Assembly (NCBI GenBank): GCA_963762565.1
Contig: CAVXLD010000012.1
Span: 416,001-480,000 of the forward strand
Reading direction: 5' to 3'
DNA: 64,000 nucleotides
Origin: an uncultured Verrucomicrobiae bacterium
Lineage (GTDB): Bacteria > Verrucomicrobiota > Verrucomicrobiia > Chthoniobacterales > JAFAMB01
Both the position numbers and the translations under genes were made by a program. Positions 12,766 through 59,788 of the stretch are shown in pieces. Numbering within the stretch: the stretch's first letter is position 1; every line of letters starts with the position of its first letter. The notes under the pieces are model-generated. The model searched no databases. It was not told where the DNA came from and was given only the letters and a program-made list of their open reading frames with translations.

Positions 12766-12919
12766 GGGGAGGGATCGCGTCCTCGCGATCAGTTGTTACC
12801 GGAGCCGACGACGCGTTGTCATCACAGACGAAAATACACCTTGAGTTGTGGCACGTCCTCGCGGCGCGCGGGGATCCGCCGTCGCTAAAGCTATGGCGGA
12901 CAGGCAGCGCGCCCTCCCC
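12766..12919. repeat. Family B REP doublet carrying the 32 bp cassette E at 12875-12906
   Basis: GGGAGGGATCGCGTCCTCGCGATC ... GGCGCGCGGGGA[TCCGCCGTCGCTAAAGCTATGGCGGACAGGCA]GCGCGCCCTCCCC. Confidence 0.9.
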
Positions 12920-12947
12920 GATTTGCACGCCTACCGCGCGATCACGG

Positions 12948-13814
12948 TTAACGAAACGTTTCCCCAACCACTTTCCCAACATCCGCGAACGCTTGGTTGA
13001 TTTTGTCGCTCGAGGCACTGGATTCAACGGTGTAAACCACAATTAGAATCGGCGCCCGGTTCGGAGGCCGCGCAATTGCGACATCTCCGGTCGCTCCGTT
13101 CTTGGGGCCAGTGCCGGTTTTGTCTCCGATCTGCCAAGTCGACGGTAACCCGGCCCGTAAACGCTTGTCACCGGTCGTATTCTTAATCAACCAGCCTTCT
13201 AACTTTTGTTGTGACCCCGCGGATAGCTCCTGGTCCACCAGCAACGATTTCAAATCCTTTAACATCGAGGCCGGAGTCGTCGTGTCACGTTCATCGCCCT
13301 TGATCGCGGTATTTAACGTTGGTTCGTTGCGGTCAAGCCGGGTGATAGGATCGCCGATAGAACGGACAAATTCTGTGAGTCCGTGCGGCCCGCCGATCGT
13401 TTGCAGCAGTAGATTCCCGGCTGTGTTATCACTATACTCAATAGCGGCCGCGCAGAGGGCGTCCAGGGTCATACTGCCTTCCTGAACATGGTTTTCGGTG
13501 ATGGGTGCCCACTCCAGCATATCGGCAGGCCCATAAGAAAGCTTTCGATCAAGACGTTCCTGGTTCTGGTCGACGCGCTTAAGAACTGCTGCGGCAGCCA
13601 GCCATTTAAAAGTGCTGCACATCGGAAAACGGTCCTTGGCGTGGTAGTCAATGCTTCTACCGTTCGCCGTATCCAGAATAGCTACCCCGAGACGGCCTTG
13701 GAGATCTCGCTCGATCTCCGCAATTCGTGTGACTGCGGGTTGCGCGGTCTTTTGGTCATCCGCAGCCGGAGCAGACAGGCCTGAGAATAATTGAACTACT
13801 CCGATAGGTAACAC
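12948..13814 (-). CDS. bla: Class A beta-lactamase
   Basis: STFK (SxxK), SDN, RLDRNEPTLN (E166 omega loop), DKTG. Start placed at GTG 13814 (GGAG upstream; TTG 13829 is an alternative) because the ORF extension to 13991 is repeat DNA. Confidence 0.92.
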   Translation of the reverse strand: MLPIGVVQLFSGLSAPAADDQKTAQPAVTRIAEIERDLQGRLGVAILDTANGRSIDYHAKDRFPMCSTFKWLAAAAVLKRVDQNQERLDRKLSYGPADMLEWAPITENHVQEGSMTLDALCAAAIEYSDNTAGNLLLQTIGGPHGLTEFVRSIGDPITRLDRNEPTLNTAIKGDERDTTTPASMLKDLKSLLVDQELSAGSQQKLEGWLIKNTTGDKRLRAGLPSTWQIGDKTGTGPKNGATGDVAIARPPNRAPILIVVYTVESSASSDKINQAFADVGKVVGETFR

Positions 13815-13860
13815 CTTCAGTATCTCCAACCCGCTGCGCGGGTGCTTTTCGGCCTTGGCG

Positions 13861-13939
13861 CAGTACTCCAACACTCCGCACTCCATCACTCCGCGTGGCC
13901 GGATTCGAGGACGAGGACGACGACGATGACGAGAACGAA
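13861..13939. repeat. CACTCC-rich run + uninterrupted family F repeat (empty allele of the composite at 43182)
   Basis: CAGTACTCCAACACTCC...CCGGATTCGAGGACGAGGACGACGACGATGACGAGAACGAA aligns to 43182-43357 minus a 97 bp insert. Confidence 0.8.
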
Positions 13940-14014
13940 ACGCCTTGTGAGTGACCATGGATCCTTCATTGATCTCGTGAGATGCCGGCAAGCCGTTGGT
14001 AAAACCGAAGATAT

Positions 14015-14176
14015 TTAGAAGTGGAGAGCGATCTGGGACAGACTGAACAGGATGCTGATCACGCTGCTAGTGGCAAAGACTGCCCACACTGCAGACTCTG
14101 CAAGACCAGTATAACGAACTGCTCTTTGCGATTCTTGTTGAAATTCCGTGGTGGAAGAGAAGGGGATCATCTTCAT
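14015..14176 (-). CDS. Putative 53 aa small membrane protein (absent from the ORF track)
   Basis: MKMIPFSSTTEFQQESQRAVRYTGLAESAVWAVFATSSVISILFSLSQIALHF; single C-terminal hydrophobic helix; sigma54-like promoter upstream. Confidence 0.55.
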   Translation of the reverse strand: MKMIPFSSTTEFQQESQRAVRYTGLAESAVWAVFATSSVISILFSLSQIALHF

Positions 14177-14192
14177 AATAACAGCGTCATAC

Positions 14193-14207
14193 GCACGTCG
14201 CGTGCCA
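14193..14207 (-). promoter_or_regulatory. Sigma54-type -24/-12 promoter
   Basis: TGGCAC-GCGAC-GTGC versus consensus TGGCAC-N5-TTGC. Confidence 0.55.
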
Positions 14208-14224
14208 CGCTTTAAGCTGTCGCT

Positions 14225-14318
14225 TAAGTGACTGAAAATGAGTGCCTTACGGATGTACTTAAATTCGTGATCCTCTAAGAAACCATCTCAAAATAGGATT
14301 CAGGTTCTCAATTTGAGA
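14225..14318. promoter_or_regulatory. IHF-like site and paired palindromic enhancer (UAS) candidates
   Basis: TTTCAGTCACTTA on the minus strand (14225-14237) resembles WATCAA-N4-TTR; TCTCA-ATT-TGAGA at 14306-14318 with a partial copy TCTCA-AAA-TAGGA 20 bp away. Confidence 0.45.
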
Positions 14319-14351
14319 CCAAAAATGAAATAGCCGCAAGCAGGGCCTAAA

Positions 14352-14721
14352 GCCTCGCGCAAAGGACGCAAAGGGCGCAAGGGGGAGAGGGTGATTAGTG
14401 ATTAGTGATTAGTGATTGGTGATTGGTGGAAACCCAAATCACCGCAAGGGGAAGACAGGTGAACCGCAGATGTACGCGGATTTATTCTGATAGAGAAGCG
14501 AAGCCTAGTGGAGGTGCGAAGCGGTGAAAGGACTATCGCCTGACAGCTGCGGGATGAGTCTGCGAGTCCTGCGAAGGTAAAAAATGCAGGCCGCCTGTTC
14601 GCCACCCATTTTTGCGCGTTGTGTGCCTTCCGCCGCTACTAGGGTTTTCCACCAATCACCAATCACCAATCACCAATCACGTTCTTCTAACCTCTGCGCC
14701 CTTTGCGTCCTTTGCGCGAGC
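14352..14721. repeat. Family H nested inverted element enclosing inverted GTGATT(A/G)/CACCAAT heptamer runs
   Basis: GCCTCGCGCAAAGGACGCAAAGGGCGCA ... TGCGCCCTTTGCGTCCTTTGCGCGAG; homologs at 61597 and 62767. Confidence 0.85.
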
Positions 14722-17768: not shown

Positions 17769-17898
17769 GGGGGAGGGCGTGCGTCCCCGCGCGCCGCGAA
17801 CGGTCTGCATTGTGGACTTGGCCCAAGACAATTCATCGGGTCTACGCGGCCTTCGGTAACAATCCGGCGACTGCCGGACGACGACGCGATCTCTCCCC
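17769..17898. repeat. Family B REP doublet, empty (no cassette)
   Basis: GGGAGGGCGTGCGTCCCCGCGCGCCGCG ... CTTCGGTAACAATCC ... GACGCGATCTCTCCCC. Confidence 0.85.
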
Positions 17899-17919: not shown

Positions 17920-18254
17920 CCCAGCGCTCGGAGGGGAGCCGCTTTGGCGCGCATTGGGTGACCTCGCGATATTTGGTTCAGCGCTCCCTTTGCCAAAGAA
18001 TATCGCAACAGGCGGCTCCGCGAATAGCCCAGCTGCTCGCAGCTCGAGGGGCCGCGCTTAAACGAATCGAAAGTCACAGGTAAATGCATCACACTGGATT
18101 ATTTCCGGGAGCCGCTTGTTTTCACACGTTTTGCCCGGATTGGCTTTGCGGCGAAATGTGCTGGGCGGCTAGATGTGCGCCAAAGCGGCCTGCCCGACGT
18201 AGCCTCCCGAGTCTAGACGAAGGGGCGAAGTCCGCCTCTCCGCCGGGCGCTGGG
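17920..18254. repeat. Family A element whose right end is interrupted by an E-like hairpin cassette
   Basis: GGAGGGGAGCCGCTTTGG ... CCAAAGCGGC[CTGCCCGACGTAGCC...GGCGAAGTCCG]CCTCTCC. Confidence 0.85.
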
Positions 18255-18338
18255 TGATTACACGTCGCATCACCCGCCACGCTTTTCGAGGACGAGGACG
18301 AGGACGCGAACGCGGGCGATTGCCGGCGGCGAATCCCC

Positions 18339-19292
18339 TCACCGGGTCGGGGTAAGCCACTGAGAACCGACCCGGGGATCCGCTAGATTACGGAAAAGAT
18401 GCTTAAACGCGTGCCAATAGCTGGGAAACGGGGCCATCTCATCCGGATTCTTCGGTTCAAGTGCCGAAGCGAATAACGGGAGCTCGGCATGCGGAATGCC
18501 CGAGCGCCAATGATGGACGCCATGAAACGGTTCGTGTAGCAGAGTTAAAGCAACAAATTTTCCGAGTGGCCCTTTTGCGATGATACTTCGGGTTGAGCCA
18601 TTCACTGTCGACCCAGTCAGGCCGACATGTTCGATGTATTTACGCCAGCTCTGCATGTTCCCGGCCAAGACTGCCGGCGCCAGATACAACCACAAAAAAT
18701 AAACCCAAGTTTTCGTGATCGCGACAACTCCGAGAATGCAAACCCAGGCGACCCCCATCAAAAGGAATTCCTCCCAAATTTTCCGCCGAACCTTCGTGTT
18801 GCGGATAGGGGAGCCCTTTCGAAAAAAGGTGCGGACGAACAAAAATGGGGTGTAAAAGGTGCCGATGGTGAGCTCGAGAAACGCGCAGAGAATTCGGAGC
18901 CATCGGGGCGTGCCAGGGATATCGAACGGCCAGAGTTCTTCGTCTTTTTGAGTCGCCAGGTGGGCGTGATGCAGTTGGTGCGCGGCCCGGTAAAGGTTGA
19001 AGCTGGTGAAGCTCATCACGCCGATGATGACGCCGTCGATTTCGTTCAAGCGCCGGTTTTTGCGGAGCAACCCATGAGTTGCTTCGTGAAAACCGATCAA
19101 CATCCCGTGCATGAGATGGCTCACAATCAGCATCAACAGTACGCTCACCCAAATCCATCCCAGATACACCGAGAGGGTCAGCGCTGCTTCGGTCACAAAA
19201 TAAATCGCCGCTAGCAGTGGGAAAGCAGCCCGGCTTACCCAGGTTGGCTGCTCCTGTGGGGTCACGGCTTCGGTCGAAGGGGTCGTGCTCAT
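18339..19292 (-). CDS. Membrane-bound fatty acid desaturase family protein
   Basis: His boxes HEATH, HQLHH, HGVHH; TM segments; ATGA overlap with the upstream C-domain gene. Confidence 0.9.
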   Translation of the reverse strand: MSTTPSTEAVTPQEQPTWVSRAAFPLLAAIYFVTEAALTLSVYLGWIWVSVLLMLIVSHLMHGMLIGFHEATHGLLRKNRRLNEIDGVIIGVMSFTSFNLYRAAHQLHHAHLATQKDEELWPFDIPGTPRWLRILCAFLELTIGTFYTPFLFVRTFFRKGSPIRNTKVRRKIWEEFLLMGVAWVCILGVVAITKTWVYFLWLYLAPAVLAGNMQSWRKYIEHVGLTGSTVNGSTRSIIAKGPLGKFVALTLLHEPFHGVHHWRSGIPHAELPLFASALEPKNPDEMAPFPSYWHAFKHLFRNLADPRVGSQWLTPTR

Positions 19293-20653
19293 GAATCTTT
19301 GCCCGGAAAAGTGTTAATCCGACTCTCAGGGGAACGACAAGCGGCTGCCAGTATCGCCTGAAAGAGGTTAACTAGGTTTTCAATTTCTGCCAGTGGGAAC
19401 AGGTCGGGCCGGAAGAGCCACACTACCTCGAGTCCTTCATCTATCACGGTGATTTCGCAGCCGAGGTGGAATCTGGCGGTACCGGTGGACCGCATGCTAA
19501 GGGACGCAGATAATCCGTGGAGTGCCACGTCCGGCATCGGATGGTTCTGCAATGCGAAACGCACTTCGAAGATCGGGTTATGTCCCGCCCTTGGAGTTTC
19601 CCCCATAGCCGTCACCAGCTCGACAAAAGGCATGGCTTTGGCGAAACATTCCACAGTTCCTTCATGCACTTTTTTGAGATGATCCGAAAAGACCCGGTCA
19701 GGCTCTACCTGCCCGCGAATAGGAACAATACCTGCGCAGTATCCCATCGTTTCCCGGACCGCCTGGGTGCTTCGGTTAGCGACGGGCGTACCCACGAGTA
19801 CATCAGCCTCGCCTGTCCATTTAGAAAGCGCGATCTGGAACGCGGATAGCAGAGTGCTAAAAAGCGTTGCGCCGGTTATGCGAGCAAGTTCCCGCACCGC
19901 ATTGGCGAGATCGATCGGAAAATAAAAGACGCGCCGCTCCGCAGGTCCCGAGGCGGTCATTGATCCTTCAAAGGAACTCCAAAGTCTCCGGGTTCCAGCC
20001 AGATAAGATCTCCAGAACGGCGCGCGGCGTTCTATTTCAGCCGGCTGCCAATAAGAGCGTTCGGCTGTGCCCCAAGCGCTGTACGTTAACGCTACTTCCG
20101 GGAGTCGCTCCCGCGGAGAGAGGATGCCGGTTAAGTAGGCGGCGCACAAATCCTCAACGAATACCCCCAAACTCCAGCCGTCCGCGACAGCATGATGAAT
20201 AGCCAGAACCAAGACATGAGTATCCTGGCTTAGCCGCAGAACTTCCACTCGATAGAGCGGCCCTCGCACGAGCTCGAACGGCGTACGGAAAACTTCCATG
20301 GCTGCCTCTTCGACCACTTCGTCGCGGACTAGCCCGTCGGAAAGGCTCCGGTACCGGAGATTAACATCCGCGCTCGACCGGATCATCTGGAGCGGGCGCT
20401 CTTTGCCGGGCAGGATCGAAAGCCGCAGGACTTCCTGGCGTTCCATTACCCGGCGGACAGCTGACTCGCAGGTTTCCTGAGTCACCAGGCCTCGCACCCG
20501 GATCAGGCAACAGATATGATTGGCAACGTCCGCAACCGGGACCGGCGATGCTTCCCAGAGCTCTCGTTGCGGAAAGGTCAGAGGCTGCAGTTTCGCTTTT
20601 CCACTGGCCAACCAGTCCTTGAGCGCGGCGCGTTTATCTACAGACACATCCAT
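19289..20653 (-). CDS. Stand-alone NRPS-type condensation domain protein / acyltransferase
   Basis: PLTFPQRELW, HHAVADGWS (HHxxxDG), VGTPVANR, HNPIFEV; no A or T domain. Confidence 0.9.
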   Translation of the reverse strand: MDVSVDKRAALKDWLASGKAKLQPLTFPQRELWEASPVPVADVANHICCLIRVRGLVTQETCESAVRRVMERQEVLRLSILPGKERPLQMIRSSADVNLRYRSLSDGLVRDEVVEEAAMEVFRTPFELVRGPLYRVEVLRLSQDTHVLVLAIHHAVADGWSLGVFVEDLCAAYLTGILSPRERLPEVALTYSAWGTAERSYWQPAEIERRAPFWRSYLAGTRRLWSSFEGSMTASGPAERRVFYFPIDLANAVRELARITGATLFSTLLSAFQIALSKWTGEADVLVGTPVANRSTQAVRETMGYCAGIVPIRGQVEPDRVFSDHLKKVHEGTVECFAKAMPFVELVTAMGETPRAGHNPIFEVRFALQNHPMPDVALHGLSASLSMRSTGTARFHLGCEITVIDEGLEVVWLFRPDLFPLAEIENLVNLFQAILAAACRSPESRINTFPGKDS

Positions 20654-20655
20654 TG

Positions 20656-23600
20656 CTAATGAACGACATCTCTTGAATCCGAAAGTTTCTCTTCGGTGGT
20701 GTCTTCTCCTAGCAAGCCCGCAATTTCCTCATCAGATAGCGCAGTCAAATCGACTTCCTCGCTGAGCGTTTGCCCGGCCTCGCCTCGAGCGGCCGCTTTT
20801 TTCGCCGGCGTCCCGCCGCTTCGTTTTGCGCCCATGTATTCTGCGATCAGCGTGACGATTTGGCCGATCGTGCGCGCTCGAGTCAGGCTGGCCGGCGGTA
20901 GCGACACTCCCAGGGAGGCATCAAGCGTATTCTCGATCTCAACTCCCATTAACGAATCGAGCCCTAGATCCGTTAACGGCTGATCATCACGCAACGTCTC
21001 CGGTTTCACCCGCAGGACGGACGCGACGGCGTCGCGCACTGCTTGCCCGACGATGCCTTCCACTTCATCCGGCGCTGCTGATTCGATCCTTTGGCGATAA
21101 TCGCTGACCTTACCGGGGCTGTCGTTCCCTTCGATGGCCGAGAAAATACGTTCGAGTAACGGTCTTTCCTGCATGCTGCGGAAGACCTGGCGCCATTTCA
21201 CCCAATCAATCCGGATCGCCATCACTTGATCGGCATTCGCCATGAGCGAAGACTCCATCAGGTCAACCACCTCATGGGGCGAAAGTTCACCGGTTCCTTG
21301 TCTGGCGAGAAACTCAGCCACCCTTTCATTGCGGGCCACGTAACCCTCGCCACCAAGTGCTCCCCAGTTGATCACGAGAGCTGGTAAACCCAGTGCCCGG
21401 CGATGATGCGCCAAGGAATCAAGGAAAGCATTGGCCGCAGCATAATTGCCCTGCGCCGGATTTCCAAAAATGCTCGAGACAGAGGAGAACATCACAAAGC
21501 AATCGAGTTCGAGGTCACGCGTTGCTTGATGGAGTAACCAGGCTCCCCGTGCTTTAGGGGCAAGCACGCTCCGCATCCGGTCGCTGGTCAGCGCCGCTAG
21601 CGGGGCGTCGTCGATCACCATGGCCAAGTGGAAAACGCCTTTTAACGGACGATTGGCTGTCCGGACCGTCGCCATCAGCCGAGTCACGTCTTCTTCAGAT
21701 CCGGCATCCGCGCGGATCGCGGTGACGGAAACACCTCGCTCGCGAAGCCGATCCACGAACCCTTTCGCTTCCGGAGTTTCTGCGCCGCTCCGGCTGACCA
21801 GTACCAGGTCTCCTGCACCGGCTTCTACTAACCATTGGGCAACGACTTTACCGAATCCTCCGAATGCCCCCGTGATCAAATAGCTGCCCTGCGTATCGAC
21901 ATGAAATCCTGCGGTCAGCGGTTCTCCTCGTCGGGGAAGGAAGGCTTCGGGGAATGTGACCAGCACTTTGCCGATATGCTTGCCCTGAGCCATCAACCGG
22001 AAACCTGCGTCAACCCGAGCCGCCGGATAAGATCGGTATGGTAGCGGTCTAAGAGAGCCGCGCTCGATGAGATCGGAAATCTCTTCCAGCATCTGCCGGG
22101 TCAAAGATTCATCACCGGAAAATACCGCATCCATGGCCACCACATGAAAAGATGCATTCCGGCGGAGCGGCCAAAGGGGGATACGTGCGTTCTGATAGAT
22201 ATCTCGCTTCCCGATCTCGATAAATCGGCCGAACTCCGTCAGACACGAAAGTCCCATTGGAATCGCTTCGGAGGCAAGTGCATTCAGTACGACATCAACT
22301 CCGCGCCGTCCGGTGATCTGCATGACCGCATCCGCAAAATCGCCGCGACGGGAATCAATGACGTGCTTAACGCCCAATCGCTCGAGCAAGTTTCGCTTAG
22401 TTTGGCTGCCCGCCGTGGCGATTACTTTTGCTCCCAGGTAATGGGCGATCTGAATCGCCGCCATCCCAACACCGCCGGCGCCAGCGTGAACCAGGATAGA
22501 TTCTCCCGGCCGCATGCGGGCCACATTCTGCAACGCGTGCCAAGCCGTCATGAACACGACCGGCAACGTGGCGGCCTCTTCAAACGATAATTCACCGGGA
22601 ATGCGGCGCACATCGCCACCTCGGGCTAAGGTGTGGGTAGAGAGCCCAAACACTGAAAGGCCGAAGACGCGGTCACCAGGCGCAACATGATCGACGCCGG
22701 ATCCCACCGCTTTCACAATCCCGGCAACTTCGTCCCCAAAGAGCCGTGCGTCCGGCGCCTCCATCGGATACAAAGCGAGGGCTTTTAATACATCCCGGAA
22801 ATTCAGGCCGGCTGCTTTAACTTCGATGAGCACTTGGCCCGGGCCGCAATCCGGTGCGACAAAGGGTTTGAAACCGAGGGTATCAAGATGCCCGCGTTCG
22901 CGGGACTCGAGTCGCAGAGGAACTGCCGGATCGAGCCGCTCGTCAACCGACGAGCGACCGCGAACGATGCGCTGAACGTACCTGGCTTGGCCCCTGAATG
23001 CGACTTCTCGTTCCCCGTCAGTCCGCATCAATTCTTGCCAGAGGAAAGAAAAGTCAGAGGGTGACGGCTCAAATCCGAGATCGATGCCGCGGCCGGAGAA
23101 GTTCGAGTACTCATTGAGGACTACGCGGAAGAGACCAAGCAGGGGAGCTTGAGCAACATTGGGAGGGATTTCCGCCCAGCCGGCCGGCTGTGCGCCGCGA
23201 GTCACCAGATCGATGCGAAGCTTTCCCGTCGGGCCGACGACGGAGTCCAAAGCTTGGACCAAATGGAGCAACGCGTCTGTCCCCATCAATGCGGGGTCTT
23301 GTTTCGAGTCTCGATTTGCCGGTTCCGTCCAGAGATAAACGATCCGCTCGAGCGGCGCATCCTGGAAGCACTCTTGCAGTACGCTCTTCCAATCCTCAAC
23401 GGACTCGGGAGCAACCGTAAAAACTCCGGTTCCGTTGCCTGGAAAATGGTTGCCGGGTCTAACTACCCTGCAGGTTGTATCCAACTGACGGAGTTGGGTT
23501 GCGAGTAGGTCTCCCAGATCAGACGCGTCGTCGACAATCAGCCACGACTTTTCTGACGGCGCTTCTATCGAACCGTTGGGCCATGCGACCGGCGTCTCAG

Positions 23601-26600
23601 CAGGTTTCTGCCAGGCCTTCCGCGCGAGCAGACCGATCTGGCCTTCGCCTTCCGGGCCAACCAGACCAGGAAGGGTTATTGTCTCGGCGAATCCGGTTTC
23701 CCGGAGGACACTCTCCCATTGAGAACGGCCCAGCAACGGGTGCTCCTGACGCAAATCGCTATCCGTAAAGCGCCACCATCCTGATGTCAGACCGAAGACG
23801 ACCTCTGTCCATAGTTGCGGGTTGGCGAGGTCCATGAAAGCCAAGCTGCCTCCCGGAGCCAGTAGGCTGTGTAGTTCCCTTAGCTCTGCCCGCAAGTCGC
23901 GGACGGCATGCAACACGTTCGTTCCAATGATGAAGTCGAATGTGCCGGCTTCAAATCCTTGCTCGGCAGCGGGTTTCTCCAGATCGTAAGTCTTAAATTC
24001 CACGTTGTGGAAATTGGCCAGCTTTTGCTTGGCGCCGCCGAAAAACGCCGGAGATACATCCGTGAAAGTGTAGGAATGCAGTTCATGGTCGATCAACGGC
24101 AACACATGAGCTGTTAATCCTCCGGTGCCGGCTCCCACTTCCAGAATTCTGAGCCCACGACCTTCCGGTAAATGGCGCGCTGTTTCCTGGATTGCGGCGG
24201 CAATCGCGCCGAGCCAATGGCTGGCGTAGAGCCCCTCGCAGTAGAAATGATCCAGCAAGTCCACTGCGCTTCCCGCGAATAGTACCTGTACGGCGTCTTT
24301 TTCTCCCCGTAAGATTGGGCCAAGTTCAGCGCAATTGTCCACGCAAAGCAGGCCCTCTGCGGTGTATCCGGGATGTTTAGTTATAAAGGTCCGGAGAGCG
24401 TCGGCGGCGGAATCTGCGGCCCGGGTGAACGCTGTTGTCGGTCGATAGCTGTCTCCATTCTTTTCGAGCCAACCGCGTCTGGCCAGGTTAGCCAGGAAAC
24501 GTTCAAACACGTGGCGCATCGGTTCCGCGACTTGCAAAGATTGGCTCGAGAAATCGACAGCCCCGGTTACAGATGCCATCTTTCGAATGCCATCAGCAAG
24601 CTGTTCCGCTGCCAGCTGATCTTGGTCGATTATCGCCTGGATCATCTGAGATCGGCCTCGCATGGTGAGCACCTCATCCAATGCTGCCTGCGCGGCTTCC
24701 CGCACCCGGCCAAACGGGATTGGCTCTGGCAGAGGCCCCGTCGATCCAACCGGTGTTCGCTCCCAGGTAAGGTGGTAGAGCACGTTGCGGCTAACAGCTT
24801 GCGCTCCTCCTCGATGGCCTCCGGCGATGGCAATTGCCCGGAAACCGTCTACCAGCACACAAGGCTGTCCTTGCTCGTCAAACAGTTCGATCCGGCCTTC
24901 AACGTATTCGTTGCTGCATTGGTGAACCGTGGCCCGTACCCGGGTGTTATCCCCGGGAGATTGAAGGAATAAAATTTTAGAAAATCGGACCGGCAATTTT
25001 AGCCCGGCTTTGCGGTCTTCCTTGGTGGCGGCCGCCGCCGAAAAGACGTGGAGAGCGCCATCGAAAAGTACGGGGTGAAGCGAGTACTCACTTGCCCGGT
25101 CGATAATTCGTTTTGATAAAGCGACCTGTCCTTCAGACCGCCCGTTGCTGGCCGAAAGGGCGCGGATCGGCCGGAACTCTTCCCCATAAGGGAGTCCCAG
25201 ATCGCTCATGTGCCGGTAGAAGTCTTCAATCCCAACCGGGGTTAGATCGGACACCGGGGAAGAATCCCAGGATGCTGTGCCAAAGCTGGTCTCTGTCCGC
25301 TCGCTGCGCATTGAGCCGACCACATGCAGGGACCACGCCGCCCCGTGATGCATTTGGCTCTGAATCGAGAAGGTTCGCTCGTTTGGGTCGTAGGAGAGCT
25401 CAAGCTGAAGCTCAGAAGGGGTATCGGACAGGATCAGCGGTTTCCGAATCTCGAAGTCTTCGACGATAAAGGGTCGTCCATTGAACAGCTGGGTGCCGGC
25501 CTCCAAGATCATCTCAACAAACGCAGCAGCCGGGAAAACGACTAAATTCTCCACCTTGTGATCCCGGAGGAAAGCCAGGTGCCGGCCGTCCAAGCGACTG
25601 ATCCAGGTGGGCGTAGCCCGCGGTAGTTTGACCTCGAGTAATCCGCGGGAGCCTGAGCTCAAGCGGCTTTCTGCCCAATCATTGGATTCGTTCCACCACC
25701 GGTTCTTGTCCCAAGCATACGCTGGGAGTGAGAGTAACCGGCGAGATGGGGTCATGCTGGTAAAGTCCAATCCGACATTGGCTCGGTGCAGGCTCATCCC
25801 AGTCTCGAGCAGTGATTCGTGTTCGCGCTCTCGCCGGATCGAAGAAAATACCGTGGTCTTGGTTCCGTTGCGTCCAGCCAGACAATCTTGAATTGACCGA
25901 ACGAGGGCGGGTTGCGCGCTAAGTTCGAGCCAAACGTCGATCCCCGTCTCGCTTACGGCGTCGACGGCGGATGCAAATTGAACCGGCTGCCGTACGCCGC
26001 GTCCCCAGTGTTCAGCGACACAATCCGTTCCAGCGCATTTCTGACCGGTGACCGTGCTGAAGAAAGGTACCTTCTCCGGATGCGGAACCAGATCAGCCAA
26101 CGCCGCCTCCAACTCTTCGGATGCAGGCCTCATCAACGGATGATGAAAAGGATGGTCCACCCGGACGAAGCGGGCGAATACCTCATCGGCCTCGAGTTCC
26201 GTCGCGATCGCTTCCAAAGAAAGCTTTGGTCCGGCTAGGGTGAGCGAGTTAGGACCGTTAAAGGCCGCGATAGTGATGGTGCGATCATATTGCGCCAGCC
26301 GAGCCCGAGCGGCCTCTTCATTTAAACCGACGGCCAACATCGTACCCTGTCCGCGGGCGCAGTCATCCATGAAGCGAGCTCGTAACACGATTATCCGAGC
26401 TGCTTCTTCAAAGGTGAGGACGCCGGCCACGAATGCAGCCGCGATTTCACCCACGCTGTGACCCACCACAGCCGCGGGCTCAATTCCCCAGGATTTCCAC
26501 ATTTCTGCCAGAGCCACCTGAATGGCGAAGATGGCCGGTTGAGCCACCTCTGTCCGCGCCATTTGCGTCTCTTCCTCCGAGCGGCTGAGCTCTTCGATCA

Positions 26601-32455: not shown

Positions 32456-32505
32456 GCAAGAATATATGGCTCTCCGCTGGTGCTTCGTGCTAAGAGCTTT
32501 GCCCG

Positions 32506-40029: not shown

Positions 40030-40071
40030 ACATGCCTTGACCTTTCCCCGCCATCATGGAAACAACGAAAC

Positions 40072-42944: not shown

Positions 42945-43054
42945 GGGAGGGATCGCGTCCCCGCGATCCGTTGGTATCGAAGTTGGGCATGTGTTGTAGT
43001 CGCGGACGAAAATACACCATTGGCTTGTGGCACGTCCTCGCGGCGCGCGGGGAC
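42945..43054. repeat. Family B REP doublet, empty allele
   Basis: GGGAGGGATCGCGTCCCCGCGATCC ... GGCACGTCCTCGCGGCGCGCGGGGAC; interior homologous to 12766 and 59076. Confidence 0.88.
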
Positions 43055-43181
43055 TACGAATCCGAGAATTGCTGCTCAAGAGGTAAAGGGTGAATTGCAC
43101 GTGAAGTTAGGGTGAAGTACGCGACCGCTGGCAATGCCTTCGGCGTCTTTTAGCCTGTGCACAGTTGCAATTTGGACTAGG

Positions 43182-43356
43182 CAGTACTCCAAAACCCCAG
43201 TATCCCATCGCTCCGCTCGACCGGATTCGAGGACAGCCTGTCCGACGAACCCCAAGCTCTATATTGCCGACCGCTCAAGTCGGCCTCGCAAGCGAGGCAC
43301 GCTCCACAGGCCGGACGCTGGCGAAGTCGGAAGGACGAGGAGGAGAACGAGAACGA
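43182..43356 (+). repeat. Composite nested repeat: F site filled by cassette E (43235-43331), which carries REP D
   Basis: CCGGATTCGAGGAC[AGCCTGTCCGACG...CGGCCTCGCAAGCGAGGCACGCTCCAC...GGCGAAGTCGGA]AGGACGAGG. Confidence 0.88.
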
Positions 43357-44423: not shown

Positions 44424-44464
44424 AAGAAGATGCCGGTGATCTTGCCACGAAGTGGCAGCAGAAT

Positions 44465-44678
44465 GGGGAGGGCGCGCTGCCTGTCCGCCATAGCTTTAGC
44501 GACGGAGGATCCCCGCGCGCCGCGAGGACGTGCCAACAACCTAAAGGTGTATTTTTGTCCGCGATTACCGCACGTACCAGGCTTCGGTAACAAAGGATCG
44601 CGGGGATCCGACGTCGCCAACGATTGCAAGAAAGACCTGGAGAGAGAAGGCTATGTCGGACAGGCAGCGATCCCTCCC
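44465..44678. repeat. Family B REP doublet with cassette E in both REPs (44478-44509 and 44607-44666)
   Basis: Both hairpin loops are interrupted by (T)GCCTGTCCG...GGA cassettes. Confidence 0.9.
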
Positions 44679-44694
44679 GGGCCATCGGCCTGCA

Positions 44695-46125
44695 TCAATC
44701 CGGCGCCGCGCGCAAAGTGAGCAACGCCTCGGCCCCCTGGTGATCTCTGCGGTTACGGACCACTACCGTCCCGTGATGCAATTGAGCGACCTCCCGAGCG
44801 AAACAAAGCCCGAGTCCCGAGCTTCTCTTGCCAGTCGACGGCCTGGCTAACGAGTAGAAACGATCAAAAATTTTAGATAGAGCGTAGTCCGGTATCCCTG
44901 GTCCTTCGTCTAAAATTCGGACCAGAACCATTTTGCTTTCTCGCTCCACTGACACCATAACCGTCCCGGCTGAGGGCGAAAATTCGTTTGCGTTCTGAAG
45001 CAAGTTAGTAACCGCGTTTTCTATCAGAAACTCGTCGCCGATCACCATCGCTTGCCGGTTCGGAGTAAAGTCAATTGTCACCGCAGTCGCGCGTTCCCGG
45101 ATCCGACGAACGACGCGTTCGACGATCCCGGATAAGTCGGCCCGCTGCGGTGCATCCAGTTTTTTGCGGTTTTCGATCACGGAAAGAGCCACCAACTCAT
45201 CGATCAACCGTTGGAGCCGGGTGGATTCCGATAAAATATTCGTCAAGAAGCGGGTTTGCTGTTCTGGAGCCATCTCTTCTTGGAGTAATTCCGAAGCACC
45301 ACTGATCGCTGCTACCGGCGCTTTCATCTCATGGCTTAAGGCTTGGACATAAGATTGGACATACTTTCGTCCTTCCAACGCGTCTCGCATCTGCTCCAGC
45401 GACTCTCCCAAAACCCGCAGATGCTGTCCGGGAAGCCGCAACGGGGCCGGCCGTTCACCTTTGGAGATAGCGATGGCATGCCGGGTGAGTTGCGCCAGCG
45501 GTGCCGTAACCCATCGGGACAAGGCGGCGCCTATCCCGGTGCATACCACCACGACACTCAATCCGACCAGCGTCAAGGTACGCTCGGTGTCCGCCAGAAA
45601 TTCTTGCACGTCGCGCTGCGGTTTGTAGACCGAGACCACCCCCCATAAATGTCCGTCGACCATGATCGGAGCTGCTACGTACAAAATCGCCCCTTTAGGA
45701 TTGGACTCCTGCACTGTCGTCCGCGCTCCATAAAGTCCTTGCAAGGTCATGGCCACATCGTGAAACGCCTTAAAATCGTGTCCCACATTTTCTGGATGCC
45801 CGGAATCGAATTGCACAATTCCATTGGCATCGGTGACGTACAGATCCATTGAGATCCGAGTCTTAAGTCGGCTATAAATTTGTGCCTGTAAATGTCTTTG
45901 GTTGGCGGCGTGGAACCCGCGTTCCCAGGCGTTGCTAAAGCTCCCGGTCGACTTAACCTCGTCAGCAATCACGCCGGCGATCACTTCGGCCGTATCAACC
46001 ATCGGTTCTTCCACCGCCTCGCGATAAGCTTGTCCGACTCGCTTGGAAACGAGACTGAGAAATAAAAGTACTCCGGCAATCGATAGGATCAGAGATCCGA
46101 GAAGGATTCGCGCGCTGATGCTCAC
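44695..46125 (-). CDS. creC: Sensor histidine kinase CreC
   Basis: VEEPMVDTA, YVTDANGIVQFDS, TLQGLYGART, LEGRKYVQSYVQALSHEMKAP, RFYSLARP. Confidence 0.9.
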   Translation of the reverse strand: MSISARILLGSLILSIAGVLLFLSLVSKRVGQAYREAVEEPMVDTAEVIAGVIADEVKSTGSFSNAWERGFHAANQRHLQAQIYSRLKTRISMDLYVTDANGIVQFDSGHPENVGHDFKAFHDVAMTLQGLYGARTTVQESNPKGAILYVAAPIMVDGHLWGVVSVYKPQRDVQEFLADTERTLTLVGLSVVVVCTGIGAALSRWVTAPLAQLTRHAIAISKGERPAPLRLPGQHLRVLGESLEQMRDALEGRKYVQSYVQALSHEMKAPVAAISGASELLQEEMAPEQQTRFLTNILSESTRLQRLIDELVALSVIENRKKLDAPQRADLSGIVERVVRRIRERATAVTIDFTPNRQAMVIGDEFLIENAVTNLLQNANEFSPSAGTVMVSVERESKMVLVRILDEGPGIPDYALSKIFDRFYSLARPSTGKRSSGLGLCFAREVAQLHHGTVVVRNRRDHQGAEALLTLRAAPD

Positions 46126-46895: not shown

Positions 46896-48109
46896 TGTGC
46901 GGAGACTGGCGGCGGCGTCACTGGTCGGCGCACGAACTTCTGCGACCAATCGACTTTTGCCGTTGTTACCATCAAGAACGCCAAAGTTAATACGGAACCG
47001 ATTGCGATGGTCAACCCGCTGTAACCGTCAATAAAAAAGCTGTAACTAAACAGCACCATATACGCAATTTGCCCGCCAACCGCCCACAATGACAGCGTCC
47101 TCCCGGCGAACCCATAAATATAACCGCACACCAGTAACAAAGAAACCCCGGCCGCAATCAGGAAACTGGCATGTAGCGGTAGCACGTCCACTAGGTAAGC
47201 GAACAGTAGATGGAACGAAAAGAATCCGGCCGAGATGAAGAAAAAATTCATCGGATGAAGCGGCGCATTGCGCGTCATGGCCAAAACCAAAAAAACGGTG
47301 GCAAAGAAAAGCAGCGAAACCGGCGCATAAAAGCTGACTCGCTCGGCTACAGGTCCTGGGTTCAGTACATCCGGCATGCTCATCCCGATGGCTTGCGCAC
47401 CGATCACATCCGGATAGCTCCATTGCAGTTGCCAACCGGTTTCTGTTTGTGTTGCCTGAGTCGGAGAACCTGTCCCTTGCGGAAAGTTAATTTCTCGAAA
47501 ATCCGTGCGCATGGTCAGAACAAAATTATGGATCCGATTTCGGTTTTGGAAGTCATACGCCCACTGATCCAGGCCACGAGTTTTGAATGCGATCTTGAGG
47601 GTTCGCGATTTACCTGCAGGTACGATTATCCCGTCCGACAAGACGCCGCTTTCTGACGGGTTCACGAGCTCAGTGCGATCTCCAAGCACGAAGGACACAT
47701 CGTAACAGCCTCCGGCATTCTGCGGTAATCGAAATGCCACGTAGATCATTTGCTCAATCGGAGTCGGATTAGCAATTTCATAAACCCCGGCGAAATCGAC
47801 GGTATAAGTTCGAAACCAGAGCAGCCCTTTCTGCTTCGGCTCAGACATTAGATGAACGGTAACCTGTGAGTTGTCCGGACTGATCGCTTTCTTGCCGTCT
47901 TTACCGGTGGGGGACTCATACCATGCGTACGGATGCATCTGTTTAAGCGGCGCACCCCATCCGGCTTGAACCGCGTTGCTCAAAGTATCTGCAGCCTGAT
48001 TTGTGCGATAGACCAGCGCTGCGCCGAGCAATGCCCAGCCGATGCTAGTGCAAACAATGATAAAACCGATCGCTAACAGTTTAGGAAAAGAATAATTGGA
48101 GTTCTTCAT
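46892..48109 (-). CDS. creD: Inner membrane CreD-like protein
   Basis: C-terminal multi-TM region with LHPMNF, FHLLFAYL, LMVTTAKVDW; translationally coupled to creBC. Confidence 0.7.
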   Translation of the reverse strand: MKNSNYSFPKLLAIGFIIVCTSIGWALLGAALVYRTNQAADTLSNAVQAGWGAPLKQMHPYAWYESPTGKDGKKAISPDNSQVTVHLMSEPKQKGLLWFRTYTVDFAGVYEIANPTPIEQMIYVAFRLPQNAGGCYDVSFVLGDRTELVNPSESGVLSDGIIVPAGKSRTLKIAFKTRGLDQWAYDFQNRNRIHNFVLTMRTDFREINFPQGTGSPTQATQTETGWQLQWSYPDVIGAQAIGMSMPDVLNPGPVAERVSFYAPVSLLFFATVFLVLAMTRNAPLHPMNFFFISAGFFSFHLLFAYLVDVLPLHASFLIAAGVSLLLVCGYIYGFAGRTLSLWAVGGQIAYMVLFSYSFFIDGYSGLTIAIGSVLTLAFLMVTTAKVDWSQKFVRRPVTPPPVSAQ

Positions 48110-48160
48110 GAGATTTTAGATTTGGGACAAGATTGTGGGCGAGGCCGACTCGGTCGCCAC

Positions 48161-48611
48161 CCGTGGAGCGTTGCCTCGCTTGCGAGGCCGGAGGGGTCGC
48201 CACCCGTGGAGCGTTGCCTCGCTTGCGAGGCCGGAGGGGTCGCCACCCGTGGAGCGTTGCCTCGCTTGCGAGGCCGGAGGGGTCGCCACCCGTGGAGCGC
48301 TGCCTCGCTTGCGAGGCCGGAGGGGTCGCCACCCGTGGAGCGCTGCCTCGCTTGCGAGGCCGGAGGGGTCGCCACCCGTGGAGCGTTTCCTCGCTTGCGA
48401 GGCCGTGGTAAACAAGGGGGCGTTGTTCTGTAAAACCCCTGCCCGTGCTGCGCTCTATCGTCTGCCGATCGCGGTTGAGACTGTCTACCTCGCAAAAATG
48501 GAACGCGACGCAGTTCCCCAATTAAGGCGATATAGAGTGTTGATAGCGTCAGGCAGTGATCAATGATGTCCCGCTGCGCGCCACGGCCTCGCAAGCGAGG
48601 CAGCGCTCCAC
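48161..48611. repeat. Tandem array of 5 x 43 bp REP D units + partial sixth (48161-48405), paired with an inverted REP D at 48581-48611
   Basis: CCGTGGAGCG(T/C)TGCCTCGCTTGCGAGGCCGGAGGGGTCGCCAC at 48161, 48204, 48247, 48290, 48333, 48376. Confidence 0.97.
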
Positions 48612-50419: not shown

Positions 50420-50600
50420 GGGAGGGCGCGCAGCCTGTCCGCCATAGCCTGGCATCAATCACGGTTTTTGCGAACAAAACTGGCGACGGCGGATCCCCGC
50501 GCGCCGCGGAAGCGCCACAATCCAAAAGGCGCATTCCCTTCCACAACGGCCACCGTCGTCGGCTTCGGTAACAACGGCGCGCGGGACTCGCGCCCTCCCC
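50420..50600. repeat. Family B REP doublet with an expanded 62 bp cassette E (50432-50493)
   Basis: GGGAGGGCGCGC[AGCCTGTCCGCCATAGCC...TGGCGACGGCGGA]TCCCCGCGCGCCGCG ... CGCGCCCTCCC. Confidence 0.9.
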
Positions 50601-51967: not shown

Positions 51968-52101
51968 GTTAGTCAGCCCAACTGTATTTAGACCACCGGA
52001 AGGCGTGTCCAAGAAGGAGTTCTTGGCACGCCTTTTGGCGTTCCGTATGCACCGGCCGACTCGCCCATTCGCCGTTTCGCCCATTCGCCCCTTTCGCCGA
52101 A

Positions 52102-52287
52102 CCGTGGAGCGCTGCCTCGCTTGCGAGGCCGTGGTAAGCAGCGGTGGTGACGTGGAAAACGCTTTGTCTGGCAACGCTCTTGTGCGGTGAGGGCGCAAAA
52201 ATCGCGACATAGAGCGCAACACAGGAAATAGCCGGACCTCGCGAGTTTCCCTTGCTACCCACGGCCTCGCAAGCGAGGCACGCTCCA
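52102..52287. repeat. Family D REP inverted doublet
   Basis: CCGTGGAGCGCTGCCTCGCTTGCGAGGCCGTGGT ... CCACGGCCTCGCAAGCGAGGCACGCTCCA. Confidence 0.9.
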
Positions 52288-57524: not shown

Positions 57525-57650
57525 ATGACTAGACCAAAACTGTACCATTCAGAAAGCGAACGCATAAGACTTCTCCTCATCTCGCGCTCAATCCATTCCG
57601 TCCTTTTAGGAGCGGTAGCGGTTATACTCGCGATCGGAGATCAGTGTTAG
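57525..57650 (+). CDS. Possible 41 aa small protein
   Basis: AAGAAGG upstream; MTRPKLYHSESERIRLLLISRSIHSVLLGAVAVILAIGDQC with hydrophobic C-terminus; AT-rich upstream DNA. Confidence 0.25.
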   Translation: MTRPKLYHSESERIRLLLISRSIHSVLLGAVAVILAIGDQC

Positions 57651-57842
57651 TTGAAGAATGACGTAACCGTCAATCTAAATTCGTGGGGATTTAACAGAAG
57701 ATCGCAAACGCCACAAAGACAGGATTACCGGTAGGCCTCTTTGCGATCCTTGTGACCTTCGTGGATGTGGTTCTTAAGAGGTTGGCGGGTAGGGGAAACG
57801 GCGTGTCGGCGTATCGGCGTGTGGGGGAACGAAGTCCAGAGC

Positions 57843-58210
57843 TGGTGGGGCGAGGCTCCGGAACGGCCGATTGTTGTTAACAATCCCCCGGCGGATTCTG
57901 GTGACATCGTGGGCGAGGCCTATTCGCGGCCGAGCCGGGCCCAGCGCTATGCAGCGGAATCGCGTCCTGGACTAGTCGATCGTGTTTTGGGGTGGCTCAC
58001 CGTGGGATCGGCTCGGCCGCCCATCGGCCTAATCCGTGACAATCGCGGGCAACGCGAGGCGCCCTGTGAAACCTTCGAGTCCAGTCCGGAGCCTCGCCCC
58101 ACCAACGTTGGGCTTCGTTCGCCGTTTCGCCCAATCGCCGGTGCGCCCTTTCGCCCTTTCGCCCACACGCCCACACGCCCACACGCCCACACGCCCACAC
58201 GCCCACACGC
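57843..58210. repeat. Family C element (57843-58104) followed by octamer runs including (CGCCCACA)6
   Basis: TGGTGGGGCGAGGCTCCGGA ... GCCGAGCCG ... CGGCTCGGC ... TCCGGAGCCTCGCCCCACCA. Confidence 0.9.
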
Positions 58211-58215
58211 CACCC

Positions 58216-58704
58216 CTACCGTTCCGGATATTCTTTTACAAAATCGCTGCTGCTCGACTCGTTAAATGCCACTAGAACCGGCTTGATGCCGGAATCGGAA
58301 GCTGGCTGGGTCGACCATGAACCGTTCCCAGTAAAAGCCAGGTCCCACTCGGCATAGACAGTTCCGGTCACACTACCGTCACCACTCTCATCAATTAAGG
58401 TTAGCCAGCCAACGCAATGGACATCCAAGGTGCCCTGATGCGAACGCGTCACCTTGATGTAGGTAATCACGAAATCGAGCGGATGAGTTGGCTGCGAGCG
58501 AGCTCTCTCCCACGATTTAACCGTGTTGGCTGGTACTGCTGTATAAACTGGTTCAACCCCGAAATAGCAGACGCTGAAAACGTCGTACACCAGTGGTTGT
58601 AACTGCCTTTCCAAAGGCGGTAACCGATCCAGGTTATAAGCGATATCACCCTTAGCTAATAGCGGTGCGAGGACCGCCGCAACAACGATAAACAATCTCA
58701 CCAT
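58216..58704 (-). CDS. Hypothetical secreted protein
   Basis: Purine-rich RBS (GAGGAAAGGGG); signal peptide MVRLFIVVAAVLAPLLAKG. Confidence 0.65.
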   Translation of the reverse strand: MVRLFIVVAAVLAPLLAKGDIAYNLDRLPPLERQLQPLVYDVFSVCYFGVEPVYTAVPANTVKSWERARSQPTHPLDFVITYIKVTRSHQGTLDVHCVGWLTLIDESGDGSVTGTVYAEWDLAFTGNGSWSTQPASDSGIKPVLVAFNESSSSDFVKEYPER

Positions 58705-59075
58705 ATTCCCCTTTCCCTCTTTTCATTCTCTTCTCACCAATCACCAATCACGGCGAGCGGGGGAACACGTACGCTGCTATGCAATGATGAACGGCACATC
58801 AATCCCTTCCGAATCTCCTGTCGATCTTGTGCAGCTAAGAGATGGCGCCTGACGGAGGGAGACCCCTTTTCTACACCGAGCTGCGACTCTGCGAATGCGA
58901 GCGGCGTTGCTAACTTCTTACTGCAATAAAACTTAAAATAAATTGACCCAGCTAACCCAACCCTTAACATCCCATCACTTCCCTCTCTTCCGGCAGCCAA
59001 ACTGCCCGTTTTAAAACGCGTAACCGTCTATTCCTTTTCCGCGATTGTCAAGACCCCGGGGCGAAGCCCCAATCC

Positions 59076-59236
59076 GGGAGGGCGCGCTGCCTGTCCGCCA
59101 TAGCTTTAGCGACGGAGGACCCCCGCGCGCCGCGAGGGCGTGCCATAACGTAAAGATGCATTCTCGTCCGCGACTACAACACATGCTCGCCTTCGTTAAC
59201 AATCCGATGGCTGCCGGACGGGGACGCGATCCCTCC
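59076..59236. repeat. Family B REP doublet with the 32 bp cassette E (59088-59119)
   Basis: Cassette identical to that at 44478-44509. Confidence 0.9.
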
Positions 59237-59311
59237 GTTATTTGCAACCCCGATCGACCTCGCTTCAGTCTTTATTACGCCGTGGAATCTGTTTAATAAT
59301 TCGGCAGCGAT

Positions 59312-59662
59312 ATGGTGCAGCCGGTTACAACAGGCAACGCGATGATAAGCGGCTCTCAACGACGATGGAAACGAATTGCCTGTTATTTACCGCTGACGGC
59401 GCTCGCGTTAGAGCTCGTTTGGATCTTCCTACTTTTCATGGCCCTGATTTTCTCGGTCGGAGATACACCCTACGTAAATACCCCCGACAAATCGCGTTTC
59501 TGGGGGTTGCTTTCGGCAGGACCGGCAGCAGTCGGCGTTCTGTTGGGGTTGGTAGTACTCCTGTTGCGCTTCCCAGCTAAGACCGTGGATTGGGTCTTCC
59601 TCTTCCTCGGCATCGCAGGATGCGCCGGCCTCCTCTTCATCTGTACCAACGGAATCTGGTAG
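59312..59662 (+). CDS. Hypothetical membrane protein (3 TM)
   Basis: Three long hydrophobic segments; start may be 59342. Confidence 0.6.
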   Translation: MVQPVTTGNAMISGSQRRWKRIACYLPLTALALELVWIFLLFMALIFSVGDTPYVNTPDKSRFWGLLSAGPAAVGVLLGLVVLLLRFPAKTVDWVFLFLGIAGCAGLLFICTNGIW

Positions 59663-59670
59663 AAACCAAT

Positions 59671-59788
59671 CGTCCTCGTCCTTCCGACTTTGCCAACGTC
59701 CCGGTTGTGGAGCGCGCCTCGCTTGCGAGGCCGACTTCGAGCGGTTGGCAACATAGAGCATAGGCTTCGTCGGACAGGCTGTCCTCGA
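59671..59788 (-). repeat. Composite nested repeat (F site + cassette E + REP D)
   Basis: Reverse complement TCGAGGAC-AGCCTGTCCGACGAAGCC...GGCCTCGCAAGCGAGGCGCGCTCCAC...GGCAAAGTCGGA-AGGACGAGGACG. Confidence 0.88.

Follow-up and report, generated by a model that had tools for sequence, protein, structure and literature searches.

A small tagged hairpin cassette in host repeats of a Verrucomicrobiae contig and in genomes of many bacterial phyla

The DNA analyzed here was a 64-kb stretch (the window) of contig CAVXLD010000012.1 from an uncultured Verrucomicrobiae bacterium, with a G+C content of 53–58%. It carried ordinary chromosomal genes, including a CO-dehydrogenase-type cluster, EF-G, a type I polyketide synthase and two-component systems, and its intergenic regions were dense in repeats. 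An initial annotation of the window had described a tiny hairpin cassette that sits in two other repeats, B and F, in filled and empty sites, and had regarded it as an ultra-small, non-autonomous element with structure-defined ends.

It was found that all eight cassette copies listed in that annotation were present at their coordinates (Table 1). The 11-mer GCCTGTCCGMC, with at most one mismatch, had 15 matches in the window against 3.25 expected, a number that was reached in 0 of 100 shuffles, and the two-ended cassette pattern had 5 matches against 0 expected. The five short copies were recovered at 33–52 bits with R1, a covariance model of the cassette used for scoring the window and the loci described below. 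The density was 8–9 copies per 64 kb, and every copy was intergenic. The stem covariation claimed for these copies (CCGCC/GGCGG versus CCGAC/GTCGG) proved real, except that copies 44478 and 59088 each carried one stem mismatch, owing to the 3' arm GGAGGA.

The cassette was not confined to the window. An exact scan of species-representative genomes (596 Gb) with the two-ended pattern, which covers loops of up to 34 nt, yielded at least 112 loci, whereas ∼0.3 would be expected by chance under uniform base composition. The ∼20-kb loci around these matches carry L-numbers below, and together with the window they form a comparison set of 1.30 Mb. In an alignment of 61 distinct short copies (A1; 59 from other genomes and 2 from the window), the cassette had at its 5' foot the unpaired tag (G)CCTG, then 6 bp of stem (TCCGMC/GKMGGA), a symmetric 3 × 3 internal loop RWA/RAM, a clamp of 2–3 bp, GC(N)/(N)GC, and an apical loop whose length is free. 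At its smallest, the unit measured 30–31 nt, and the lengths fell into classes of 31, 34 and 37 nt, up to 61 nt. The tag was GCCTG in 61/61 aligned copies, being fixed by the pattern; in divergent copies it was GCTTG, ACCTG, TCCTG or NNYTG.

The structure was supported by covariation. In A1, the internal loop covaried as a unit, with ATA opposite GAC and GTA or GAA opposite GAA. Pairing was scored on a second alignment (A3) of 122 matches in 89 distinct rows fitted to the covariance model: 97% of the cells were paired and 6 of 9 pairs were changed on both sides, values which were reached in 0 of 500 shuffles, and slid controls gave 28–51% pairing. The third clamp pair covaried freely there (C-G in 44 rows, U-A in 24 and G-C in 6). 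Compensated stems were also observed in divergent copies found by the model (TCCGTC/GACGGA, CCCGCC/GGCGGG, CCAGCC/GGCTGG and TCCTCC/GGAGGA).

Host repeat B was a 130–215-bp element with terminal hairpins in inverted orientation, which looks like a MITE, a miniature transposable element with inverted repeats. Its six copies had twelve ends, of which five were filled with the cassette, four were empty, two carried a different small hairpin and one was truncated exactly at the cassette position. An empty end folded with an 8-bp stem and a TCCC loop, and in filled ends W plus the cassette took the place of the final G in the stem's 5' half (...CGC-G-TCCCC versus ...CGC-W-GCCTG...GGA-TCCCC). The empty B and F sites of the annotation were present and differed from the filled ones as described; in addition to the empty hairpins GGGAGGG(ATCGC/CGTGC)-G-TCCCC at 42945 and 17771, two further ones, at 12767 and 50588 (minus strand), had been missed. 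For host F, an alignment of filled and empty sites (A2) gave TCGAGGAC-G-AGGAC for the empty and TCGAGGAC-A-GCCTG...GGA-AGGAC for the filled form. The claim that the cassette replaces a single G therefore held for the B and F alignments; the wider data are better read as insertion between G and A/T, since the base 3' of the element was A or T at 99 of 114 distinct sites; the base after that was G at 61 of the 114. In one nested copy (L090), the base before CCTG was C.

The filled sites of the window were probably not independent insertions, and the copies most likely travel with their B and F hosts. The three filled F copies had one common loop content, a repetitive extragenic palindromic (REP) element termed REP D with its flanks, and this F composite recurred at about 70–82% identity in L062, another Verrucomicrobiota metagenome-assembled genome (MAG). 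Filled and empty B-type hairpins with the same junction occurred together in three Verrucomicrobiota loci (L019, L020 and L098). These shared forms suggest that the filled/empty dimorphism of B and F would be old and that the copies in the window multiply with their hosts. The outcome that the annotation had itself set against its reading, descent of all filled copies from one ancestral composite, thus applied locally and not globally. The window EF-G was 78% identical to that of the nearest relative, the Verrucomicrobiae MAG of L019, and was the only gene common to the two in a gene comparison.

Several further observations were made on these hosts. In the right hairpins of B2 and B6, the 3' half was replaced by the hairpin TCCGGCAG(T/C)C(G/A)(C/T)CGGA, and this TCCGGCAG hairpin may be a second tiny element using host B. 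The B termini started with GGGGAGGG or GGGGAGAG. A GGGGWSAS motif is described, in the available text of PMC3733652, for inverted repeats flanking some RAYT-like genes; among the B termini, only the end of B2 matched it exactly. The F family had a conserved 84-nt left part (..CAAAGCGGCTCCCCTCC..) before the GAGGAC run, and at 18188 this part contained an apparent decayed cassette at a second site.

Table 1. Cassette copies, host repeats and further features of the window
Feature	Position	Strand	Remarks
Cassette, 32 bp, minimal form	12875..12906	−	left terminal hairpin of B1; T + GCCTG tag, stem TCCGCC/GGCGGA, ATA/GAC internal loop, GC-TTTA-GC tip; R1 52.2 bits
Cassette, 32 bp	44478..44509	+	left hairpin of B4; 3' arm GGAGGA (one stem mismatch); R1 50.2 bits
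Cassette, 60 bp	44607..44666	−	right hairpin of B4; stem TCCGAC/GTCGGA; unique 32-nt loop; R1 33.3 bits
Cassette, 62 bp	50432..50493	+	left hairpin of B5; leading A; unique 34-nt loop; R1 42.4 bits
Cassette, 32 bp	59088..59119	+	left hairpin of B6; core same as 44479–44509
Cassette, 97 bp	43235..43331	+	host F; 69-nt loop with REP D hairpin (GGCCTCGCAAGCGAGGC)
Cassette, 98 bp	59683..59780	−	host F; REP D in loop
Cassette, GCTTG tag variant, stem TCCGCC/GGCGGA	8989..9086	−	host F; REP D in loop; R1 31.8 bits
Possible ninth, decayed copy (GCCTGCCCGAC...)	18188..18232	+	other site of F-family repeat; weak: R1 9.5 bits, E 1.3
B1	12767..12918		left hairpin filled; right hairpin (12767–12791) empty
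B2	17771..17897		left hairpin empty (GGGAGGGCGTGC-G-TCCCCGCGCGCC); right end with different small hairpin
B3	42945..43055		one empty hairpin; other end truncated where the cassette sits in filled copies
B4	44466..44678		cassettes in both terminal hairpins, inverted orientation
B5	50420..50599		left hairpin filled; right hairpin (about 50575–50599) empty
B6	59076..59237		left hairpin filled; right end with different small hairpin
Small hairpin in right ends of B2, B6	17860–17897, 59195–59237	−	3' half replaced
B termini	12767–12778, 17886–17897, others
Empty F site	128..160	+	TCGAGGAC-G-AGGACGACGA
Further empty F sites	13904–13924, 18285–18305, 9449–9463
F family, conserved left part	60–143, 9381–9464, 18170–18300
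REP D tandem arrays	39775–40071, 48096–48439		42–43-nt units, about 6 units
REP D single copies	near 28593, 28745, 46409, 52102, 52262
Tandem arrays of 7–8-nt units	11213–11279, 14650–14716, 32390–32465, 36573–36640, 52053–52128, 58103–58218, 59783–59992, 62956–63036		intergenic
Biosynthetic cluster	18339–28356	−	2566-aa type I polyketide synthase (KS-AT-DH-MT-ER-KR-ACP), condensation-domain protein, fatty-acid desaturase

The loops had been described as holding either unrelated sequences of about 30 nt or a whole REP D, and this was confirmed: the ∼32-nt loops of the 58–62-nt forms were unique, with no match elsewhere in the window and loci, and the three F copies held REP D. Judged by eye rather than from a computed alignment, the loops of L034 and L098 were alike, as were those of L069 and L102; if so, these loops would evolve as ordinary sequence. 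Two cassettes (L061 and L090) contained a second cassette within their loop. The presence of REP D or a second cassette inside loops points to secondary insertion, and the variable contents are better read as later insertions of small repeats into the cassette loop than as the capture of cargo that had been proposed. REP D itself (core GGCCTCGCAAGCGAGGC, head GTGGAGCG) also formed tandem arrays and single copies in the window and was present in L006, L047 and L062.

Across the loci, the cassette was found in various insertion contexts. It lay in the loop of CGTC-type REPs (L108 and L022), between G and A/T of a unit in heptamer tandem arrays (L072, L097, L041, L021, L083, L095 and L033), and directly abutting another copy (L050 and L053). 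In 17 of 118 copies, the two flanks could form a contiguous pairing of 5 bp or more, compared with 3.7% in a control pairing the flanks of different copies. Some copies were flanked by imperfect 6–8-nt direct repeats. These were rejected as target-site duplications and were read as host or composite sequence, because the same repeats recurred with the cassette at different sites or were explained by tandem arrays, and copies hosted in hairpins had no flanking direct repeat. The insertion rule in the wider data thus reads as entry between G and A/T with no consistent target duplication. Tandem arrays of 7–8-nt units (CACCAAT, TCGCCCWT, ACGCCRA and others) were also present in many intergenic regions of the window, and similar arrays host the cassette in other genomes of the Planctomycetes–Verrucomicrobia–Chlamydiae (PVC) group.

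The cassette also occurred inside protein genes. Ten open reading frames (ORFs) enclosing a copy were scanned, and five were clearly real genes with the copy in the coding frame, encoding a PQQ dehydrogenase (L004), a penicillin amidase (L024), an Lhr helicase (L045, cassette antisense), an E2 acyltransferase (L056, in the linker) and a sigma-70 factor (L063, at the N-terminus). The recurring cassette peptides were GLSAVA..AKAD and PVRRS..EGG in sense frames and SAFAKATADR in one antisense frame. With the length taken from G to A, 98 of 115 copies measured 3n+1, which leaves the frame intact provided that the G is host sequence, and five of the six cassette frames were open. Selection for frame was not accepted as the cause of these lengths, because the 31/34/37 classes also follow from base pairs added at the tip. 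In Vicinamibacterales, two different genes had the cassette in the same extended flanks.

The helicase gave evidence of presence and absence outside the window. In an alignment of 50 Lhr homologues (58–87% identity to the query), the site was the loop after the Walker A motif. The SAFA.ATAD peptide, which is also that of the query, was present in 2/50 and RLRQ.FGGQ, which corresponds to the other antisense frame, in 2/50, whereas 46/50 had no recognizable cassette peptide. Judged from these sequences, orthologous Lhr loops are polymorphic for the presence of the cassette, and the site has at least two different states. The L045 contig was labelled Flavobacteriaceae, and the nearest named relatives of its Lhr helicase were Alphaproteobacteria (Micropepsaceae and Rhizomicrobium), so that this bin label may be wrong. 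In the penicillin amidase family, 1 of 40 homologues had a diverged cassette peptide. The cassette of L024 lay within a hypervariable linker (residues about 225–250) of GAS/GAT/GAM repeats, encoded by 9-nt DNA repeats, in this Vicinamibacterales amidase family.

In a Patescibacteria MAG (L049), the cassette was found in P12 of a class A RNase P RNA (Rfam, 195.7 bits). By sequence reading, the gene extended over about 9918–10523 and was closed by a 13-bp P1. A second, nearly identical unit lay before the GAGGAAAGTCC box, where P3 belongs; the Rfam alignment started after this first dimer, and the 13-bp P1 and the GAGGAAAGTCC box put the 5' end upstream. Each unit was an inverted pair of cassettes folding as a 110-nt hairpin, with energies of −68.6 and −72.8 kcal/mol and z-scores of −6.8 and −9.0; 0 of 200 shuffles folded as well. 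In these dimers, pairing between the partners replaced the cassette's own hairpin.

At least 11 named phyla were represented among the matches listed, with an almost invariant core. When 80 record titles from the at least 112 loci were grouped (our own grouping, in which bin labels may err), 27 loci were assigned to PVC-type Verrucomicrobiota, Kiritimatiellae and Lentisphaerae, 12 to Pseudomonadota (3 of them Bradyrhizobium, of which two were complete chromosomes), 9 to Planctomycetota, 7 to Acidobacteriota, 6 to Omnitrophota, 3 to Bacteroidota, 2 each to Patescibacteria and Thermodesulfobacteriota, 4 to single labels (Rifleibacteriota, Bdellovibrio, Armatimonadota and one Bifidobacterium) and 8 to no named group. 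The occurrence in palindromes, arrays, protein genes and an RNA gene in many phyla supported the idea of an ultra-small, non-coding element that is defined by its structure and occurs in unrelated hosts.

Cassette 11-mers were found in literature text only in unrelated papers, and 15-mers in none; searches by concept returned nothing beyond the papers on REPs. The 3' arm presumably resembles a conserved stretch of ribosomal RNA. In the text available for such papers, the 3'-arm 11-mer turned up under unrelated topics, several of them on Streptomyces or gut microbes.

Among known systems, the GTAG superfamily of REPs was the closest in architecture. RAYT binding is stated, in the available text of PMC3479197, to require a 5' tetranucleotide and a stem mismatch. 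As described in the available text of PMC3733652, GTAG-3/-14 REPs have a stem, non-complementary di- or trinucleotides and a GC-flanked loop of variable length, and they share with the cassette an imperfect 20–40-bp palindrome, an unpaired 4–5-nt tag at the 5' foot and the same modular plan of stem, trinucleotide and GC-flanked loop. That text also places some REPs within small palindromes and, in frame, within genes for helicases and repair proteins; in such sites, and in the PVC group, both kinds of repeat occur. The differences are that the cassette tag is (G)CCTG, that its stem sequence is unrelated, that no RAYT gene flanked by the cassette was found, that most loci had one copy and that one core recurs in at least 11 named phyla. 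Inverted dimers (REPIN/BIME) were clear for the cassette in L049 and at the ends of B4, most copies being single. The cassette is set apart from the published REP families by text descriptions, and one of the 24 + 4 families of PMC3733652 may overlap with it.

CGTC-tagged REPs were considered as well. According to the available text of PMC3733652, they have no dedicated transposase and occur in five phyla; like the cassette, they are small tagged palindromes of several phyla with no linked enzyme. They are described with a tag CGTC, TGTC or CCTC, an 8–9-bp stem starting with A-T, a 4–5-nt loop and a CCA tail. The TGTC variant can be read at cassette positions 4–7, but T6 and C7 of the cassette were paired and covarying and hence belong to the stem; moreover, the cassette stem starts T-A, C-G and its 3' neighbours are W-G-C, not CCA. 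With stem foot and tail differing, and the cassette inserted inside CGTC-type REP loops (L108 and L022), it was regarded as a separate family. MITEs resemble the cassette in being short, non-autonomous and hairpin-folding, and they are intergenic; a MITE was rejected as its identity, because the inverted end is 6 bp rather than 15–30 bp and there is no consistent target duplication and no parent insertion sequence (IS). An integron attC site was likewise rejected, as no R''/L''-L'/R' boxes with GTTRRRY core sites were present in A1. Rickettsia palindromic elements (RPEs) are also found in RNA genes, and RPE-1 has several times the length and is known only from Rickettsia; this comparison is one of descriptions, no RPE sequence having been compared. 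In the available text of PMC3733652, RPEs are, like the cassette, reported in frame in functional protein genes.

Taken together, we consider it fairly probable that the cassette is a REP-like small palindromic repeat, i.e. a non-coding, non-autonomous, selfish DNA hairpin. This is a known kind of element; what is unusual is the tag, the occurrence of a nearly constant core in many phyla, and the presence in RNase P RNA. Such a repeat would enter between G and A/T without a consistent target duplication, and its favoured sites would be DNA that can be extruded as a single strand, namely the tips of other palindromes and short tandem arrays. Its survival in genes would be due to a net length that is mostly divisible by three and to five of the six frames being open. 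The eight window copies would be carried by B and F and multiply together with them, and the loop contents would result from secondary insertion of other small repeats. Because the 5' tag and mismatched hairpin are as in Y1 HUH substrates and the plan is that of GTAG-3/-14 REPs, mobilization in trans is proposed: as the architecture suggests, an HUH Y1 enzyme of the RAYT/IS200 type might act on the folded single strand, whose tag, stem foot and mismatched loop it would recognize.

A series of results weighs against a REP-like repeat. The tag of the cassette is not GTAG; a GTAG does exist, but it forms part of the internal loop within the hairpin. Unlike classical REPs, most 20-kb loci had a single copy, and a nearly constant sequence in so many phyla is not easily reconciled with dependence on lineage-specific enzymes. 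The cassette had no match in 72,556 plasmid records and one weak, chance-level match (E 0.6) in 50,697 phage records, so that no carrier was seen. As the annotation had stated, there was no cognate enzyme in the window: a Pfam search of 48 window ORFs revealed no transposase, HUH enzyme, reverse transcriptase or integrase. Clustering of 1100 ORFs of the loci returned only large housekeeping families (histidine kinases, ABC ATPases and similar ones) as recurrent. Among 141 ORFs within 1.2 kb of copies, Pfam revealed one RAYT-like gene (L057, 9240–10040), at 42.9 bits compared with an NCBIfam cut-off of 80; it was flanked and interrupted by its own different repeat (..CCTTTAAAGGTGACACCTTT..), about 360 nt from the cassette, and looks like a REPtron of a different family. 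The linked genes suggested in the annotation (RAYT/Y1 HUH, IS110 or reverse transcriptase, flanked by the cassette) were not found in the window or among the 141 neighbours; for RAYT, whole genomes were not searched. No gene-sized loop was present in 1.30 Mb: of 123 5' halves, 121 closed within 70 nt and 2 within 71–120 nt, and an autonomous version was rejected, as no pair of halves enclosed more than 120 nt. Single-sequence DNA folds of six filled copies were no better than those of shuffles (z +0.21 to −0.97), and the structural case rests on covariation, not on folding energy. Finally, the scan pattern fixed most positions, including the G before CCTG, so that conservation is partly built in, and the rows of A3 had been fitted to the model.

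A bolder version, in which the 30-nt unit is itself transposable, is regarded as rather unlikely. The unit would then be the smallest known transposable element and among the most widespread in bacteria, defined by its fold instead of by long ends, and moved by an enzyme that is either distributed over many phyla or as yet unrecognized; it would be capable of entering essential RNA genes (helices P3 and P12 of RNase P RNA) and, in frame, proteins, and its loop would in turn be a landing pad for other elements, repeats thus accumulating by nesting in one another.

It seemed unlikely to us that selection instead maintains the cassette for a function as a structured RNA or a protein-binding hairpin, such as an mRNA-stabilizing or -processing module or a mimic of a conserved RNA motif, and that it spreads passively with carrier sequences. 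The near-identical sequence in many phyla, the internal loop covarying as a unit (ATA/GAC and GWA/GAA) together with compensatory stem changes, and the tolerance in peripheral RNase P RNA helices would all fit such a role, as would the orientation in the window, where 7 of 8 copies were sense to the adjacent gene and mostly lay just 3' of it. In the wider set, however, no orientation bias relative to genes was observed, with 12 sense versus 7 antisense copies between co-directional genes and 17 versus 21 inside ORFs, many of which are unverified. The cassette was antisense inside a real helicase gene, it was present in tandem arrays and nested in itself, and in the L049 dimers its own hairpin was exchanged for pairing between partners. 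A known RNA family was also rejected as its identity, as Rfam 15 gave 0 matches for the whole window at the gathering score and 0 for 44380–44720 at E up to 10.

Slightly less likely still is that the cassette is immobile, being an optional segment of larger repeats such as B and F, whose filled and empty forms arose via deletion, gene conversion or recombination between repeat copies. Every window copy was inside B or F, and the single loop content of the three F copies, the composite in L062, the B forms with one junction in L019, L020 and L098, and the two Vicinamibacterales genes with the same extended flanks all agree with it. This explanation is opposed by the recurrence of one 31-nt core in over 100 contexts that are unrelated and come from many phyla, including CGTC-type REP loops, differing heptamer arrays and different genes, by the nesting of the cassette in itself (L061 and L090), and by the two cassette frames in the same loop of orthologous helicases, most of which lack it.

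Movement by a different machine, i.e. a tyrosine recombinase on folded hairpins (integron- or Xer-like), a palindrome-targeting IS110-type recombinase or host replication and repair, is improbable: hairpin tips are targeted with no Y1 gene linked, one copy (L065) lay 22 nt after a XerC-like integrase gene, the wide range of phyla would accord with a host enzyme of broad conservation and IS elements targeting REPs are in print (available text of PMC1525189), but no attC-type boxes or dif-like core were visible in the cassette sequence, the L065 integrase was one case among the 141 neighbouring ORFs, and a 5' tag with a mismatched hairpin is the signature reported for Y1 substrates in the available text of PMC3479197.

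For a REP-like repeat of this kind, the consequences depend on whether it moves alone. If it does, the lower size limit for a mobile DNA unit would be ∼30 nt, and a mobilizing activity would be common to very distant bacteria, from Patescibacteria to Bradyrhizobium. The cassette also repeatedly gives rise to spurious ORFs and, in alignments of proteins, to apparent insertions, and annotation pipelines should include a covariance model for it. Should it do no more than persist, it still shows how small palindromes colonize the loops of other palindromes and tandem arrays, how peptides of 10–17 residues are added to real enzymes, and how peripheral helices of RNase P RNA are remodelled.

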